64,000 nt of DNA, from assembly GCF_044324785.1 (NCBI RefSeq), contig NZ_CP172127.1; one strand, 5' to 3'. This document shows positions 5,101 through 14,020 of this stretch, in pieces. The DNA is from Escherichia coli. GTDB taxonomy: Bacteria; Pseudomonadota; Gammaproteobacteria; Enterobacterales; Enterobacteriaceae. The position numbers and the translations under genes are program-made. Within the stretch, counting starts at the first letter, position 1. The number at the start of each line of letters is the position of its first letter. The notes under the pieces are model-generated. The model was not told the origin of the DNA. It ran no database searches and saw nothing but the letters and a program-made list of their open reading frames with translations.

Positions 5101-6161
5101 TCGAGCGTCATATTCAGACCATGCATAGCAAAGGCCGTCCGGTGTTCCAGGCGGTGCGGGAAAACAGCGAAGATGCCCGTGAATGGCAAAGCGGCACCTT
5201 TGTCGCCCCGACGCTGATCGAACTGGATGACTTTGCCGAATTGCAAAAAGAGGTCTTTGGTCCGGTGCTGCATGTGGTGCGTTACAACCGTAACCAGCTG
5301 CCGGAGCTGATCGAGCAGATTAACGCTTCCGGTTATGGCCTGACGCTTGGCGTTCATACGCGTATTGATGAAACCATCGCCCAGGTCACTGGCTCGGCGC
5401 ATGTCGGTAACCTGTACGTTAACCGTAATATGGTGGGCGCAGTGGTGGGTGTGCAGCCATTCGGCGGCGAAGGGTTGTCCGGCACCGGGCCGAAAGCAGG
5501 CGGTCCGCTCTATCTCTACCGTCTGCTGGCGAATCGCCCGGAAAGTGCACTGGCAGTGACGCTCGCGCGTCAGGATGCAGAGTATCCGGTCGATGCGCAG
5601 TTGAAAGCCGCATTGACTCAGCCGCTAAATGCACTGCGGGAATGGGCGGCAAACCGTCCAGAATTGCAGGCGTTATGTACGCAATATGGCGAGCTGGCGC
5701 AGGCAGGAACACAACGATTGTTGCCAGGGCCGACGGGTGAACGCAACACCTGGACGCTGCTGCCGCGTGAGCGCGTGTTGTGTATTGCGGATGATGAACA
5801 GGATGCGCTGACTCAGCTCGCCGCCGTGCTGGCGGTGGGTAGCCAGGTGCTGTGGCCGGATGATGCGCTGCATCGTCAGTTAGTGAAGGCATTGCCATCG
5901 GCAGTCAGCGAACGTATTCAACTGGCGAAAGTGGAAAATATAACCGCTCAACCCTTTGATGCGGTGATCTTCCACGGTGATTCGGATCAGCTTCGCGCAT
6001 TGTGTGAAGCCGTTGCCGCGCGGGATGGCGCAATTGTTTCGGTGCAGGGTTTTGCCCGAGGCGAAAGCAATATCCTTCTGGAACGGCTGTATATCGAACG
6101 CTCGCTGAGTGTGAATACCGCTGCCGCTGGCGGTAACGCCAGTTTAATGACGATCGGTTAA
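2199..6161 (+). CDS. putA: Bifunctional proline dehydrogenase / P5C dehydrogenase and transcriptional repressor PutA, 1320 aa
   Basis: ORF 2133..6161; start trimmed to the ATG at 2199 (MGTTTMGVKLDD...), which matches the PutA N-terminus I recall. Confidence 0.93.
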   Translation: MGTTTMGVKLDDATRERIKSAATRIDRTPHWLIKQAIFSYLEQLENSDTLPELPALLSGAANESDEAPTPAEEPHQPFLDFAEQILPQSVSRAAITAAYRRPETEAVSMLLEQARLPQPVAEQAHKLAYQLADKLRNQKNASGRAGMVQGLLQEFSLSSQEGVALMCLAEALLRIPDKATRDALIRDKISNGNWQSHIGRSPSLFVNAATWGLLFTGKLVSTHNEASLSRSLNRIIGKSGEPLIRKGVDMAMRLMGEQFVTGETIAEALANARKLEEKGFRYSYDMLGEAALTAADAQAYMVSYQQAIHAIGKASNGRGIYEGPGISIKLSALHPRYSRAQYDRVMEELYPRLKSLTLLARQYDIGINIDAEEADRLEISLDLLEKLCFEPELAGWNGIGFVIQAYQKRCPLVIDYLIDLATRSRRRLMIRLVKGAYWDSEIKRAQMDGLEGYPVYTRKVYTDVSYLACAKKLLAVPNLIYPQFATHNAHTLAAIYQLAGQNYYPGQYEFQCLHGMGEPLYEQVTGKVADGKLNRPCRIYAPVGTHETLLAYLVRRLLENGANTSFVNRIADTSLPLDELVADPVTAVEKLAQQEGQTGLPHPKIPLPRDLYGHGRDNSAGLDLANEHRLASLSSALLNSALQKWQALPMLEQPVTAGEMSPVINPAEPKDIVGYVREATPREVEQALESAVNNAPIWFATPPAERAAILHRAAVLMESQMQQLIGILVREAGKTFSNAIAEVREAVDFLHYYAGQVRDDFANETHRPLGPVVCISPWNFPLAIFTGQIAAALAAGNSVLAKPAEQTPLIAAQGIAILLEAGVPPGVVQLLPGQGETVGAQLTGDDRVRGVMFTGSTEVATLLQRNIASRLDAQGRPIPLIAETGGMNAMIVDSSALTEQVVIDVLASAFDSAGQRCSALRVLCLQDEIADHTLKMLRGAMAECRMGNPGRLTTDIGPVIDSEAKANIERHIQTMHSKGRPVFQAVRENSEDAREWQSGTFVAPTLIELDDFAELQKEVFGPVLHVVRYNRNQLPELIEQINASGYGLTLGVHTRIDETIAQVTGSAHVGNLYVNRNMVGAVVGVQPFGGEGLSGTGPKAGGPLYLYRLLANRPESALAVTLARQDAEYPVDAQLKAALTQPLNALREWAANRPELQALCTQYGELAQAGTQRLLPGPTGERNTWTLLPRERVLCIADDEQDALTQLAAVLAVGSQVLWPDDALHRQLVKALPSAVSERIQLAKVENITAQPFDAVIFHGDSDQLRALCEAVAARDGAIVSVQGFARGESNILLERLYIERSLSVNTAAAGGNASLMTIG

Positions 6162-6168
6162 ACTGGAA

Positions 6169-6203
6169 GCCGGAGGATGTTACAACCTCCTCCGGCATCT
6201 TTA
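6169..6203. terminator. Hairpin between convergent putA and rutR (GCCGGAGGA-N10-TCCTCCGGC)
   Basis: 9-bp perfect inverted repeat immediately after the putA stop and overlapping the rutR stop; no strong T-run. Confidence 0.45.
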
Positions 6204-6839
6204 ACGTGGTCGAATCCCCTCAATAATAATCCGCTGCACGTTTTCAACCGTTTGATTGAAAAATACCTCATCGCGCAACGTCGCGCCTGTCACCGCCTCC
6301 ACCTGAGGGGCGAAATCGGCGTAATGTTGAGTGGAAGCCCAAATCATAAAAATCAAATGCTGCGGGTCAATCGGCGCGAGTTTGCCGCTTTTTACCCAAC
6401 CGGCAATCAGCGCCGATTTCTCATCAATTAATACCTTCAAATCGCCCGTCAGTTCATCCATTAACAACGGCGCGCCTGCCAGCATCTCCATACAGAACAG
6501 GCGCGAAGCCTGCGGATAATCGCGTGAGACTTCCAGCTTCAGACGGATGTACTCTTTGATCGCCGCCAGCGGGGCGAAATCTTCACGAAACGCTTTTAAC
6601 GGTGCCAGCCAGATATCGAGAATCTGCCGCAGTACGGCTATATACAGCGCCTCTTTTGACGGGAAGTAATACAGCAGATTGGTTTTTGAAACACCCGCCA
6701 ACTCTGCGATCTGCTCCAGCCTTGTGCCGTGAAAACCGAATTGTGAAAAAGTGTCCAGTGCTGCGCTAAGAATCGCTTTTTTCTTCGCGCTCACTGCGCG
6801 CGAACGTTTACCCGTTGTTTTCACTGCGCCTTGCGTCAT
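6201..6839 (-). CDS. rutR: TetR-family regulator of pyrimidine utilisation RutR, 212 aa
   Basis: ORF 6201..6866; start trimmed to MTQGAVKTTGKRSR...; TetR-like HTH region near the N-terminus. Confidence 0.9.
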   Translation of the reverse strand: MTQGAVKTTGKRSRAVSAKKKAILSAALDTFSQFGFHGTRLEQIAELAGVSKTNLLYYFPSKEALYIAVLRQILDIWLAPLKAFREDFAPLAAIKEYIRLKLEVSRDYPQASRLFCMEMLAGAPLLMDELTGDLKVLIDEKSALIAGWVKSGKLAPIDPQHLIFMIWASTQHYADFAPQVEAVTGATLRDEVFFNQTVENVQRIIIEGIRPR

Positions 6840-6945
6840 GCGCTCTCCCCTCTTGTAGATTGGCAACAGGATAGCAAAACCCCTGCCCGGCCACGACCTT
6901 CTGCACTTTCATCGCGCACGGATGCATGTTTTATGTGCAACTGTT

Positions 6946-6961
6946 TTGACCGTTTAGTCCA
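6946..6961. promoter_or_regulatory. RutR-box-like site TTGACCGTTTAGTCCA
   Basis: Partial match to the RutR consensus TTGACCANNTGGTCAA in the rutR-rutA divergent region. Confidence 0.4.
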
Positions 6962-7025
6962 CTTTTTTCCAGATATTTTAGACAACTTAACATTAACACA
7001 TTAATAACATTCACTTTTTAAAAAC

Positions 7026-7041
7026 TGGCATCCGCTTTGCA
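7026..7041 (+). promoter_or_regulatory. Sigma-54 promoter for the rut operon (TGGCAT-N5-TTGCA)
   Basis: Near-perfect -24 GG / -12 GC element about 30 nt upstream of the rutA start; the rut operon is known to be NtrC/sigma-54 dependent. Confidence 0.65.
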
Positions 7042-7069
7042 AACAAACCATTACGCGGCTGAAAAGGAT

Positions 7070-8910
<1,841 letters not shown>

Positions 8911-8921
8911 GGAGTTTAACG

Positions 8922-9308
8922 ATGCCAAAATCCGTAATTATTCCCGCTGGCAGCAGCGCACCGCTGGCCCCCTTCGTTCCCGGCACGCTGGCTGATGGCG
9001 TGGTGTATGTCTCCGGTACGCTGGCTTTTGATCAACATAATAACGTGCTGTTTGCCGATGACCCAAAGGCGCAAACCCGCCACGTTCTGGAAACCATCCG
9101 CAAGGTGATCGAGACGGCGGGTGGCACGATGGCGGATGTGACCTTCAACAGCATCTTTATTACCGACTGGAAAAATTACGCCGCGATTAACGAAATCTAC
9201 GCCGAGTTTTTTCCGGGTGATAAACCGGCGCGATTCTGCATTCAGTGCGGACTGGTAAAACCTGACGCGCTGGTGGAAATCGCCACAATTGCGCATATCG
9301 CCAAGTGA
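8922..9308 (+). CDS. rutC: Aminoacrylate peracid reductase RutC (RidA/YjgF family), 128 aa
   Basis: Full ORF; RidA-like translation. Confidence 0.9.
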
Positions 9309-9315
9309 GGCCGCG

Positions 9316-10116
9316 ATGAAACTTTCACTCTCACCTCCCCCTTATGCTGATGCGCCCGTAGTGGTGTTGATTTCGGGTCTTGGCGGTAGCGGCAGTTACT
9401 GGTTACCGCAACTGGCGGTACTGGAGCAGGAGTATCAGGTAGTCTGTTACGACCAGCGCGGCACCGGCAATAATCCCGACACGCTGGAAGAAGATTACAG
9501 TATCGCCCAGATGGCAGCGGAACTGCATCAGGCGCTGGTAGCCGCAGGGATTGAGCGTTACGCGGTGGTCGGCCATGCGCTCGGTGCGCTGGTGGGAATG
9601 CAGCTGGCGCTGGATTATCCCGCGTCGGTAACTGTGCTGGTCAGCGTTAACGGCTGGCTACGAATAAACGCCCATACGCGCCGCTGTTTTCAGGTTCGCG
9701 AGCAGTTACTACATAGCGGCGGCGCGCAGGCATGGGTGGAAGCTCAGCCATTGTTCCTCTATCCCGCCGACTGGATGGCGGCCCGCGCACCTCGCCTGGA
9801 AGCTGAAGACGCGCTGGCACTGGCGCATTTTCAGGGCAAAAATAATTTACTGCGTCGACTTAACGCCCTCAAACGCGCTGACTTTAGTCGCCATGCGGAT
9901 CGCATTCGCTGCCCGGTGCAAATCATCTGCGCCAGTGATGATCTGCTGGTGCCAACAGCATGTTCCAGTGAACTTCATGCCGCCCTGCCCGATAGCCAGA
10001 AAATGGTGATGCGCTATGGCGGACACGCCTGCAACGTGACCGATCCCGAAACGTTTAATGCTCTGTTACTCAACGGGCTTGCCAGCCTGTTACATCACCG
10101 TGAAGCCGCCCTGTAA
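9316..10116 (+). CDS. rutD: Aminoacrylate hydrolase RutD (alpha/beta hydrolase), 266 aa
   Basis: ORF 9289..10116 trimmed to [14 protein letters not shown]...; HALGA nucleophile-elbow motif (GxSxG variant). Confidence 0.88.
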
Positions 10117-10125
10117 GGAATTGCT

Positions 10126-10716
10126 ATGAACGAAGCCATTAGCCCAGGTGCGCTTAGCACCTTGTTCACCGATGCCCGCACTCACAACGGCTGGCGGGAG
10201 ACACCCGTCAGCGATGAGACATTACGGGAGATTTATGCCCTGATGAAATGGGGGCCGACATCAGCTAACTGTTCTCCGGCACGGATCGTGTTTATCCGCA
10301 CTGCAGAAGGAAAAGAACGTCTGCGCCCGGCGCTTTCCAACGGCAATCTGCAAAAAACCCTGACCGCGCCCGTCACCGCGATCGTCGCCTGGGACAGTGA
10401 ATTTTATGAACGGTTACCACAGCTGTTTCCTCACGGCGATGCCCGCAGTTGGTTTACCTCCAGCCCACAACTTGCCGAAGAAACAGCGTTTCGCAACAGT
10501 TCCATGCAGGCGGCCTATCTGATCGTCGCCTGCCGGGCGCTGGGGCTGGATACCGGCCCGATGTCGGGTTTTGACCGTCAACACGTAGACGACGCTTTTT
10601 TTGCAGGCAGCACGCTGAAGAGCAACCTGCTGATTAATATCGGCTATGGCGATAGCTGCAAACTTTTTGCGCGCCTGCCACGTCTGTCCTTTGAGGAAGC
10701 CTGCGGGCTGTTGTAA
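10126..10716 (+). CDS. rutE: Malonic semialdehyde reductase RutE (nitroreductase family), 196 aa
   Basis: Full ORF in operon order. Confidence 0.9.
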
Positions 10717-10726
10717 GGAGCAAACT

Positions 10727-11221
10727 ATGAACATCGTCGATCAACAAACTTTTCGCGATGCGATGTCCTGCATGGGCGCGGCGGTCAATATTATCACCAC
10801 GGACGGTCCAGCCGGGCGCGCCGGGTTCACCGCCAGCGCCGTCTGCAGCGTGACCGATACGCCGCCCACATTACTGGTGTGCCTGAATCGTGGGGCGTCC
10901 GTCTGGCCGGTATTCAATGAAAATCGAACGCTGTGTGTAAATACACTTAGCGCCGGGCAGGAGCCGCTTTCAAACCTTTTTGGCGGCAAAACGCCCATGG
11001 AACACCGCTTTGCCGCCGCCCGCTGGCAGACTGGTGTGACCGGATGCCCGCAACTGGAAGAGGCACTGGTTTCGTTTGACTGCCGTATCAGCCAGGTGAT
11101 GAGCGTCGGCACCCACGACATTTTGTTTTGCGCCATCGAAGCGATTCATCGTCACGCCACACCCTACGGGCTGGTGTGGTTCGATCGCAGTTATCACGCG
11201 CTGATGCGCCCTGCTTGTTAA
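10727..11221 (+). CDS. rutF: Flavin reductase RutF, 164 aa
   Basis: ORF 10646..11221 trimmed to [13 protein letters not shown]... Confidence 0.88.
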
Positions 11222-11241
11222 CCTCCTTAAGGAGACAGCTG

Positions 11242-12570
11242 ATGGCAATGTTCGGTTTTCCTCACTGGCAGTTAAAATCGACCTCTACAGAGAGCGGCGT
11301 GGTCGCGCCGGATGAACGATTGCCGTTTGCTCAGACGGCAGTAATGGGCGTTCAACACGCGGTGGCGATGTTTGGCGCGACGGTGTTAATGCCGATTCTG
11401 ATGGGGCTGGATCCCAATCTTTCCATTTTAATGTCGGGGATCGGCACGTTACTGTTTTTCTTTATTACCGGCGGGCGCGTCCCCAGTTATCTCGGTTCCA
11501 GCGCGGCTTTTGTCGGCGTGGTGATTGCCGCGACGGGCTTTAATGGTCAGGGAATTAATCCGAATATCAGCATCGCGCTGGGCGGGATTATCGCCTGTGG
11601 GCTGGTTTATACCGTCATTGGCCTGGTGGTGATGAAAATCGGTACGCGCTGGATTGAACGGCTGATGCCGCCGGTGGTGACGGGTGCGGTGGTGATGGCG
11701 ATTGGCCTGAACTTAGCGCCTATCGCAGTGAAAAGTGTATCGGCTTCGGCCTTTGATAGCTGGATGGCGGTAATGACGGTGCTGTGTATTGGGCTAGTGG
11801 CGGTGTTTACCCGTGGCATGATCCAGCGATTATTGATTCTCGTAGGATTAATTGTCGCCTGTCTGCTGTATGGCGTGATGACCAACGTTTTAGGGCTGGG
11901 AAAAGCCGTTGATTTTACTCTCGTCAGCCATGCTGCCTGGTTCGGTTTGCCACATTTTTCCACTCCTGCTTTTAATGGTCAGGCAATGATGCTGATTGCG
12001 CCCGTGGCGGTGATTCTGGTGGCAGAAAACTTAGGTCATCTCAAGGCGGTCGCCGGGATGACCGGACGCAATATGGATCCATATATGAGGCGGGCATTCG
12101 TGGGCGATGGGCTGGCAACGATGCTTTCCGGCTCTGTCGGCGGTAGCGGCGTGACCACCTACGCCGAGAATATCGGTGTGATGGCCGTGACCAAAGTCTA
12201 CTCGACGCTGGTGTTTGTTGCTGCTGCCGTCATCGCCATGCTGTTGGGCTTTTCGCCGAAATTTGGCGCGCTGATCCATACCATTCCTGCACCGGTGATT
12301 GGTGGTGCTTCAATTGTTGTGTTCGGGCTGATTGCCGTCGCAGGCGTAAGGATCTGGGTACAAAACCGTGTCGATTTAAGCCAGAACGGTAATTTGATTA
12401 TGGTCGCAGTAACCTTAGTGCTGGGCGCGGGTGATTTTGCTCTCACGCTGGGCGGTTTTACGTTGGGAGGGATCGGTACAGCAACCTTTGGCGCGATTTT
12501 ACTCAATGCGTTGTTAAGCAGAAGGTTGGTTGACGTTCCACCGCCAGAAGTTGTTCATCAGGAGCCATAA
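11242..12570 (+). CDS. rutG: Pyrimidine permease RutG (NCS2 family), 442 aa
   Basis: ORF 11128..12570 trimmed to MAMFGFPHWQ... at ATG 11242, preceded by GGAGACAG; polytopic membrane protein. Confidence 0.88.
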   Translation: MAMFGFPHWQLKSTSTESGVVAPDERLPFAQTAVMGVQHAVAMFGATVLMPILMGLDPNLSILMSGIGTLLFFFITGGRVPSYLGSSAAFVGVVIAATGFNGQGINPNISIALGGIIACGLVYTVIGLVVMKIGTRWIERLMPPVVTGAVVMAIGLNLAPIAVKSVSASAFDSWMAVMTVLCIGLVAVFTRGMIQRLLILVGLIVACLLYGVMTNVLGLGKAVDFTLVSHAAWFGLPHFSTPAFNGQAMMLIAPVAVILVAENLGHLKAVAGMTGRNMDPYMRRAFVGDGLATMLSGSVGGSGVTTYAENIGVMAVTKVYSTLVFVAAAVIAMLLGFSPKFGALIHTIPAPVIGGASIVVFGLIAVAGVRIWVQNRVDLSQNGNLIMVAVTLVLGAGDFALTLGGFTLGGIGTATFGAILLNALLSRRLVDVPPPEVVHQEP

Positions 12571-12577
12571 ACAGAAA

Positions 12578-12610
12578 ACCGCCGGGGTAACCGGCGGTGA
12601 TGACTTTTTG
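12578..12610. terminator. Hairpin ACCGCCGG-GGTA-ACCGGCGGT between convergent rutG and ymdF
   Basis: 8-bp stem; on the minus strand it is followed by TTTTCTGTTT, so it is most convincing as the ymdF terminator. Confidence 0.5.
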
Positions 12611-12652
12611 ACGAGCTTCAGACAAAAATGCATTCGTCACTGATTAGTCCGG

Positions 12653-12760
12653 CTAGTTGTCACTTTTGCCGTGACTGCTCTTGCCACCTTTTTTACCTGC
12701 TTCTGATGCTCTTTCGCGGTCTTCTGCAAAATTACCGGAACCGCCTCGATGGTTTGCCAT
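12653..12760 (-). CDS. ymdF: KGG-repeat stress protein YmdF-like, 35 aa as encoded here
   Basis: ATG preceded by GGAGG; translation MANHRGGSGNFAEDRERASEAGKKGGKSSHGKSDN; embedded in the longer ORF 12653..12934. Confidence 0.7.
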   Translation of the reverse strand: MANHRGGSGNFAEDRERASEAGKKGGKSSHGKSDN

Positions 12761-13119
12761 TACTGACCTCCGTCTTGATGTAAACATCATATTGCATTGC
12801 ATAGAATTAACGCGGCGTATGGCGGTTGCCATATTTTCGCTACGTGGGACTAAGCTTAGTGAACTGACGAGGGCAGACCCGCGTTTGGTAATATCCTGCA
12901 ACAGCTTCTTAGCGAGAATAGATATCATCTCCAATAATTATCCATAAGCCGCTCTTATGATTAAAAAAACGCGATGAGATAAAAATGTATCATTTTGCGA
13001 CAAATTTACGCGCTTGTGAAAGTTGTTATAAATCAAATAAGTGGTTGTGAAATTTGCACTCTGAAAAGGACGTCTTATCTTTAAATAAGTGGTAGCGAAT
13101 CGCTACGGAATAGAGATAA

Positions 13120-13734
<615 letters not shown>

Positions 13735-13754
13735 TCTTCAACAGGAGGATACGC

Positions 13755-13982
13755 ATGCCAACTCAAGAAGCGAAAGCTCATCACGTCGGTGAATGGGCAT
13801 CTCTGCGCAATACGTCGCCGGAAATAGCCGAGGCCATTTTCGAAGTCGCCGGGTACGACGAAAAAATGGCGGAAAAGATTTGGGAAGAAGGTAGCGATGA
13901 AGTGTTAGTCAAAGCCTTTGCTAAAACCGATAAAGATTCGCTTTTTTGGGGCGAACAGACCATCGAACGTAAAAACGTTTAA
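13755..13982 (+). CDS. yccJ: Small protein YccJ, 75 aa
   Basis: ORF directly downstream of wrbA with a 20-nt gap. Confidence 0.85.
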
Positions 13983-13987
13983 TCCGC

Positions 13988-14020
13988 GACTCCCCCGCTT
14001 CACGCGGGGGAGTTTTCTGT
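13988..14020 (+). terminator. Rho-independent terminator after yccJ (CTCCCCCGC-TTCAC-GCGGGGGAG + TTTT)
   Basis: 9-bp GC-rich stem followed by a T-run; abuts the agp stop. Confidence 0.7.

Follow-up and report, generated by a model that had tools for sequence, protein, structure and literature searches.

Several small proteins related to YmdF have been described. PA2146 of Pseudomonas aeruginosa and the ymdF paralogues of Klebsiella pneumoniae are, like YmdF, small KGG-repeat proteins (PMC9262955). Deletion of ymdF from Escherichia coli K-12 leads to thin biofilms, an approximately 100-fold greater killing by peroxide and increased sensitivity to tobramycin and ciprofloxacin, and E. coli ymdF cross-complements the biofilm and tolerance phenotypes of a P. 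aeruginosa ΔPA2146 mutant, the protein used being the two-unit K-12 form (PMC9262955). Salmonella ymdF is a σS-dependent small open reading frame (ORF), paralogous to the gene for the hydrophilin YciG, and its product has been detected by mass spectrometry (PMC5437024). YmdF, YciG and STM14_1829 are also among the acid-induced stress response proteins studied in S. Typhimurium in a 2026 preprint (10.64898/2026.04.09.717482). A search of the literature found no account of a length polymorphism in ymdF or of a short allele.

The DNA analysed here is a stretch of 64,000 nucleotides from E. coli (contig NZ_CP172127.1 of RefSeq assembly GCF_044324785.1), referred to as the window. A preliminary description made from the sequence had placed in it a 35-aa KGG-repeat protein under the name ymdF, and the exact sequence quoted there, MANHRGGSGNFAEDRERASEAGKKGGKSSHGKSDN, is recovered on the minus strand between the ATG at 12760..12758 and the TAG at 12655..12653. 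The name also stands, because the gene is flanked by wrbA and rutG and because the N- and C-termini of its product are identical to those of K-12 YmdF. Comparison with annotated relatives shows that the wrbA-ymdF-rutG order is that found at the K-12 ymdF position, and the convergent rutG gene fixes the identity of the locus, which was matched in 5,416 of 5,426 complete E. coli genomes. The rutG ORF itself spans 11128..12570, and starting at the MAMFGF sequence at codon 39 it predicts a protein of 442 aa; a rutG gene of 1329 nt is annotated at the same position in relatives of the window. The annotation given to rutG in a B2/ST95-like group is 'solute carrier family 23 protein', with the gene frameshifted in E. 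coli 19AR0253 (L008 991-1677), and in one genome with the short ymdF allele (L026) it is broken into several small ORFs. The features of the locus are listed in Table 1.

Table 1. Features of the ymdF locus, with positions in the window.
Feature	Position	Strand	Details	Basis
rutG, pyrimidine permease	11242..12570	+	442 aa; convergent downstream neighbour	ORF list, relatives
GC-rich hairpin followed by a minus-strand T-run	12578..12598		8 pairs, 7 of them G-C	consensus scan, both strands
ymdF CDS, contracted one-unit allele	12653..12760	-	108 nt; 35 codons and TAG	sequence, translation
Sole remaining copy of the 26-bp core, GCATCAGAAGCAGGTAAAAAAGGTGG	12684..12709	-	contains the deletion junction; long alleles have a second copy at a distance of 66 bp	
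In-frame open stretch upstream of the ymdF ATG (mechanical 93-codon ORF)	12761..12934	-	non-coding 5' region	
Shine-Dalgarno sequence GGAGG	12767..12771	-	6-nt spacer to the ymdF ATG; kept in all aligned strains	
wrbA, NAD(P)H:quinone oxidoreductase	13138..13734	+	198 aa; divergent upstream neighbour	ORF list, relatives

The 35-aa product matches Pfam PF10685 (KGG, stress-induced bacterial acidophilic repeat motif) with a score of 39 bits (cut-off 20.4; E = 9.8e-10), and the match covers a single KGG unit at residues 10-30. Neither the 35-aa nor the 57-aa form of YmdF matched any NCBIfam model at E ≤ 0.01, and the name 'con-10 family general stress protein' given by PGAP must come from a rule other than an NCBIfam model. 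The hairpin lies approximately 55 nt past the ymdF stop codon, just beyond the end of the convergent rutG gene, and is one of 4 sites found in a scan for the terminator consensus, compared with 0.7 expected in shuffled sequences. It is likely to be the intrinsic terminator of ymdF, used also by rutG. A separate Rfam scan of 12300..13300 gave an sroD-like RNA at 12573-12644 on the minus strand, overlapping the 3' untranslated region of ymdF and the hairpin, scoring 25.6 bits where the gathering score is 50 (E = 0.015), which is probably a chance match. K-12-type strains carry a 174-bp insertion, perhaps a REP-type element, between ymdF and rutG (at about 12575-12600 of the window, with match spans of 636 nt), and this insertion is absent from the window, from strain N3, from O157:H7 and from the B1 and B2 haplotypes.

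In K-12 (NCM3722), ymdF is 174 nt long and predicts a protein of 57 aa with two KGG units, in line with the preliminary description. The K-12 protein reads MANHRGGSGNFAEDRERASEAGKKGG-QHSGGNFKNDPQRASEAGKKGG-KSSHGKSDN, and the window lacks exactly the middle 22 codons, i.e. 66 nt encoding QHSGGNFKNDPQRASEAGKKGG, where a loss of about 22 codons had been suspected. All 35 residues encoded in the window are identical to the corresponding K-12 residues. Among the 5,426 complete E. coli genomes, the window has its closest relative in strain N3 (99.3% identity over 14 kb; next best 98.1%), and N3 carries the long, 57-aa allele. A 401-nt query from the window matches N3 with 100% identity in two pieces, with 66 extra bases between them. 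The N3 gene contains a perfect direct repeat of 26 bp, GCATCAGAAGCAGGTAAAAAAGGTGG (26/26 positions), with a period of 66 bp, whereas the K-12 core agrees at 25/26 positions and the longest perfect repeat at this period in K-12 ymdF is 20 bp. This core encodes ASEAGKKGG. When one period is removed from the N3 sequence in silico, the result is identical to the window over 641 nt (12348..12988), and all 27 placements of the deletion inside the N3 repeat give the same product. Both end-points therefore fall inside the ASEAGKKGG-coding core, in agreement with the earlier proposal that the loss occurred between these repeated segments. The ymdF gene of the window is thus a derived allele that has lost one of two 22-residue units through an in-frame deletion of 66 bp, reducing the product from 57 to 35 aa. 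Taking all of the comparisons together, the best explanation, and one that we consider very probably correct, is that a one-unit ymdF was produced by a 66-bp deletion between 26-bp repeats, most likely through slippage, in an independent event on an N3-like background.

Elsewhere in the surrounding region, the segment of N3 (NZ_CP031609.1 3875843-3891318) that corresponds to 6000-20000 of the window is 15,476 nt rather than 14,001 nt long and aligns in three pieces. In addition to those 66 bp of ymdF, approximately 1.4 kb present in N3 is absent from the window somewhere in this interval. The matching interval of strain PCP07014 contains an insertion of the IS1397 family.

A length polymorphism in ymdF, suspected from the window, is evident among the 5,426 complete E. 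coli genomes. Because BLAST joins two pieces across the indel, coverage by a long query does not distinguish the alleles, and short junction-centred queries were used for this reason. One-piece coverage of a 65-nt junction-centred query identified the contracted junction in 345 genomes (6.4%), and the K-12 CDS used as query found full-length ymdF in 5,067. A synthetic expansion-junction query, representing a three-unit ymdF, matched none of the 5,426 genomes. There was likewise no three-unit E. coli YmdF among the best 120 homologue clusters, in which the longer entries were start-codon extensions or C-terminal frameshifts. The 35-aa protein corresponds to RefSeq WP_001273654.1, annotated in O157:H7 and other strains, and its exact sequence is indexed in approximately 30,000 blocks of a large assembly collection, though the RefSeq records for the short form lack a gene name. 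The short protein is therefore already catalogued and common, and represents an ordinary recurring polymorphism. O157:H7 accounts for most of the carriers among complete genomes; the four short-allele genomes sampled from the junction search all had this serotype, and 364 records have the O157-type flanking haplotype (≥99% identity). In the O157:H7 short-allele genomes, prophage genes (AntA / P22_AR_C) are found approximately 1 kb upstream of ymdF, at the usual place of wrbA, which is consistent with the known integration of Stx phages in wrbA.

An error of sequencing or assembly would require that the source genome carries the 174-nt allele and that its two 66-bp units were collapsed into one. 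The exact nucleotide allele of the window (short, with GGT and AGT codons) was seen in no other genome examined, and the nearest relative, N3, has the long allele, as this explanation would predict. However, tens of thousands of assemblies, as well as the 345 complete genomes, show the same contraction, which is hence a genuine biological allele. The junction is also clean and in-frame. Collapse of the repeat is unlikely in any case, because the shared core of 26 bp is shorter than the k-mers and reads normally used. An artefact is accordingly a very unlikely source of the short gene in the window.

The short allele is found on at least 6 different flanking haplotypes. These include a B1-like haplotype (21 genomes), a B2/ST95-like haplotype (4 genomes) and two K-12-like haplotypes that have the 174-bp insertion between ymdF and rutG, one of which keeps the K-12 second-copy marker GGTGGT. 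The flanks of four haplotypes (window/N3-like, O157, B1-like and B2-like) are 34-51 substitutions apart per 1.4 kb. For both the B1-like and the B2-like groups there are also many genomes, among them O104:H4, UTI89, S88 and ATCC 11775, that carry the long allele on flanks 99.9% identical to theirs. Outside E. coli, E. albertii and E. fergusonii also have one-unit ymdF alleles at this locus, and relative to the two copies of the E. albertii type strain, the junctions of two short variants in that species lie in different 8-bp microhomologies, GAAGCAGG and AAAAAAGG. Because the short allele sits on distinct flanks and with differing crossover points, the contraction has arisen many times, with separate events in O157:H7, several further E. 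coli backgrounds, Shigella flexneri and E. fergusonii, and two in E. albertii.

For the window itself, the main alternative to a new deletion is that the short allele was imported by homologous recombination from another short-allele strain. E. coli recombines frequently, and the protein is identical to that of O157:H7. However, the window CDS contains two synonymous variants, GGT at codon 9 and AGT at codon 32, at which it differs from the other short alleles seen and matches the long allele of N3. Once the 66 bp are removed, N3 and the window are the same for 641 nt around the gene, but the flanks of O157:H7 and the other short-allele strains are 41-51 substitutions off per 1.4 kb. None of the one-piece, i.e. 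short-allele, matches to the window CDS exceeded 98.1% identity among the best 60, and the complete E. coli genomes, the GTDB species representatives and the 10 places listed for the exact protein yielded no short allele with the same nucleotide sequence. Import is thus hardly credible, with about the same small chance as an artefact. The deletion seen in the window occurred on an N3-like chromosome, independently of O157:H7 and the other lineages.

The direction of change follows from the wider distribution of the two forms. Two-unit homologues of 55-58 aa are found in Salmonella, Klebsiella, Citrobacter, Enterobacter and Pluralibacter, and all six Escherichia species representatives that match the 5' pattern of ymdF, among them E. 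whittamii and the type strain of E. albertii, encode 57 aa. Since the Escherichia representatives and other Enterobacteriaceae keep two units, this arrangement is ancestral and the 35-aa form derived. The two units of ymdF differ at about half of the positions outside the core, and the duplication that produced them is therefore old. The reverse order, with the one-unit form ancestral and the 57-aa form produced by tandem duplication, could draw on the presence of one-unit forms in three Escherichia species, but with two-unit forms throughout the Enterobacteriaceae, near-identical long-allele relatives for each short haplotype examined and such divergence between the units, it has practically no chance of being correct. 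The rutABCDEFG operon, which in E. coli separates ymdF from rutR (TetR family) and putA, is missing from the E. albertii and E. fergusonii loci, where rutR and putA come immediately after ymdF.

The short length could also be questioned from the other end of the gene, as the frame remains open upstream of the ATG. A mechanical ORF of 93 codons starts at TTG 12934, and the preliminary description had already reported it to be free of KGG repeats ahead of the ATG. In the 93-aa translation, the Pfam match is confined to residues 68-88, and the KGG unit is absent from the upstream 58 codons. The open frame ahead of the ATG extends over 58-59 codons in the window, 59 in N3, 36 in O157:H7 and 28 in K-12 and others. 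In E. albertii and E. fergusonii it is just 4 codons long, and the residues encoded ahead of the ATG differ between strains and species. The upstream ORF is, because of this variation in length, not a conserved product; the ATG is the start of ymdF, and the sequence ahead of it is a non-coding 5' region. Though the frame is indeed open for 58 codons in the window, the 93-codon ORF is almost certainly not the true product, given that neither its length nor its residues are conserved, that no family matches it upstream of the ATG, that GGAGG is placed 6 nt ahead of the ATG and that RefSeq annotates the ATG start everywhere. The presence of GGAGG near the ATG had been recorded earlier, but the 7-nt distance given for it had counted in the A of the ATG.

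In E. coli, deletions between direct repeats that are short and close together classically arise through slipped misalignment, and work on repeat instability in this species by Lovett and colleagues reportedly describes misalignment deletions that are independent of RecA. In the ymdF locus, exactly one period is lost, the end-points fall in the repeated core and the two-copy parental allele is present in the close relative N3. Slipped misalignment of the 26-bp repeats during replication would produce precisely this in-frame loss of 66 bp, and a deletion between direct repeats this short and close would be expected to proceed independently of RecA. Judged solely by the length and spacing of the repeats, replication slippage is the most likely mechanism, rather than RecA-dependent recombination. 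The varied crossover points and short microhomologies of the other lineages fit slippage as well, and the recurrence of the contraction is unsurprising for a 26-bp direct repeat.

The recurrence might instead reflect repeated selection for a change in the number of hydrophilin units, and not merely neutral slippage. This reading is prompted by the parallel and one-directional nature of the change, as a contraction is seen also in yciG and no expansion in the 5,426 complete genomes. It is improbable. If it were true, there would be selection to weaken or re-tune a σS-dependent biofilm and acid-stress protein in particular niches.

The deletion leaves the expression signals intact and does not affect the start codon, the ribosome-binding site, the terminator or either terminus of the protein, so that a one-unit product of 35 aa (~3.6 kDa; calculated mass 3630.8 Da with the initiator Met) should still be made. 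Under the criteria of Garay-Arroyo et al., hydrophilins have more than 6% glycine and a mean hydrophilicity above 1 (cited via PMC5437024). With 20.0% glycine and a GRAVY of -1.67, the 35-aa YmdF is a hydrophilin by this definition; the values for the 57-aa form are 21.1% and -1.71. YmdF is a small, glycine-rich and highly hydrophilic stress protein of the KGG-repeat family, and to judge from the literature it would be a σS-dependent hydrophilin. A sequence search of the PDB with YmdF returned no solved relative. Our best guess is that the 35-aa form is expressed as a one-unit version of the protein, possibly a weaker one, and may retain the stress and biofilm function.

Upstream of ymdF, a scan for the σ70 consensus gave one weak site approximately 230 nt from the gene, no better than in shuffled sequences. 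The window and N3 share a tandem duplication of GCAAT at 12781-12800 (minus strand), between 20 and 45 nt ahead of the ymdF start codon, where they read GTTTACATCAAG and K-12, O157:H7 and others read GTCTATACCCAG. The K-12 version, GTCTATACCCAG, contains CTATAC, which resembles a σS-type -10 element. It may be that the promoter-proximal region of the window/N3 lineage behaves differently from that of K-12.

On its own the allele in the window is of little consequence, as the 35-aa protein is catalogued, very common and the standard ymdF allele of O157:H7. For annotation, the short form is a genuine ymdF allele and yet its gene name is missing, and one genome has the equivalent form of yciG marked as a partial pseudogene. 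The functional work on YmdF used the two-unit K-12 protein, and the one-unit form of O157:H7 offers a ready-made natural test of unit number. For typing, the ymdF locus offers a neat small case in which deletion between 26-bp repeats has recurred. Because the deletion recurs, ymdF length is homoplasious and is a poor phylogenetic marker.

Of the known counterparts, K-12 YmdF (b1005; WP_001273658.1; 57 aa) is encoded by the orthologous gene at the orthologous position. The two proteins agree fully over residues 1-26 and over the last 9 residues, and the ribosome-binding site and terminator region are kept in the window, but K-12 has two KGG units and the window only one. The WP_001273654.1 protein of O157:H7, annotated as 'general stress protein' or 'con-10 family general stress protein', has the same amino acid sequence, locus and junction; the window DNA differs from that of its carriers at two synonymous sites and in the flanks. 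As a deletion between direct repeats, the change in the window likewise removes exactly one period, with a perfect repeat of 26 bp and units 66 bp apart, whereas the other ymdF lineages show microhomologies of 8-20 bp. The paralogous σS-dependent hydrophilin YciG (59 aa in K-12; reference at 7857-8036 of locus L031) has the same two-unit KGG architecture with a 66-nt period, but its gene belongs to the yciGFE locus, outside the window, and its C-terminus is different. A one-unit contraction of yciG (66 bp; 37 aa, MAEHRGGSGNFAEDREKASDAGRKGGQQSGGNKSGKS) is present in at least 7 complete E. coli genomes, and in E. coli KFu019 the one-unit yciG (362-475 of locus L032) is the copy annotated by PGAP as a partial pseudogene. 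At the 66-nt period, K-12 yciG has a perfect repeat of just 11 bp, compared with 20-26 bp in ymdF, which is consistent with an influence of repeat length on how often the contraction appears in the two genes.
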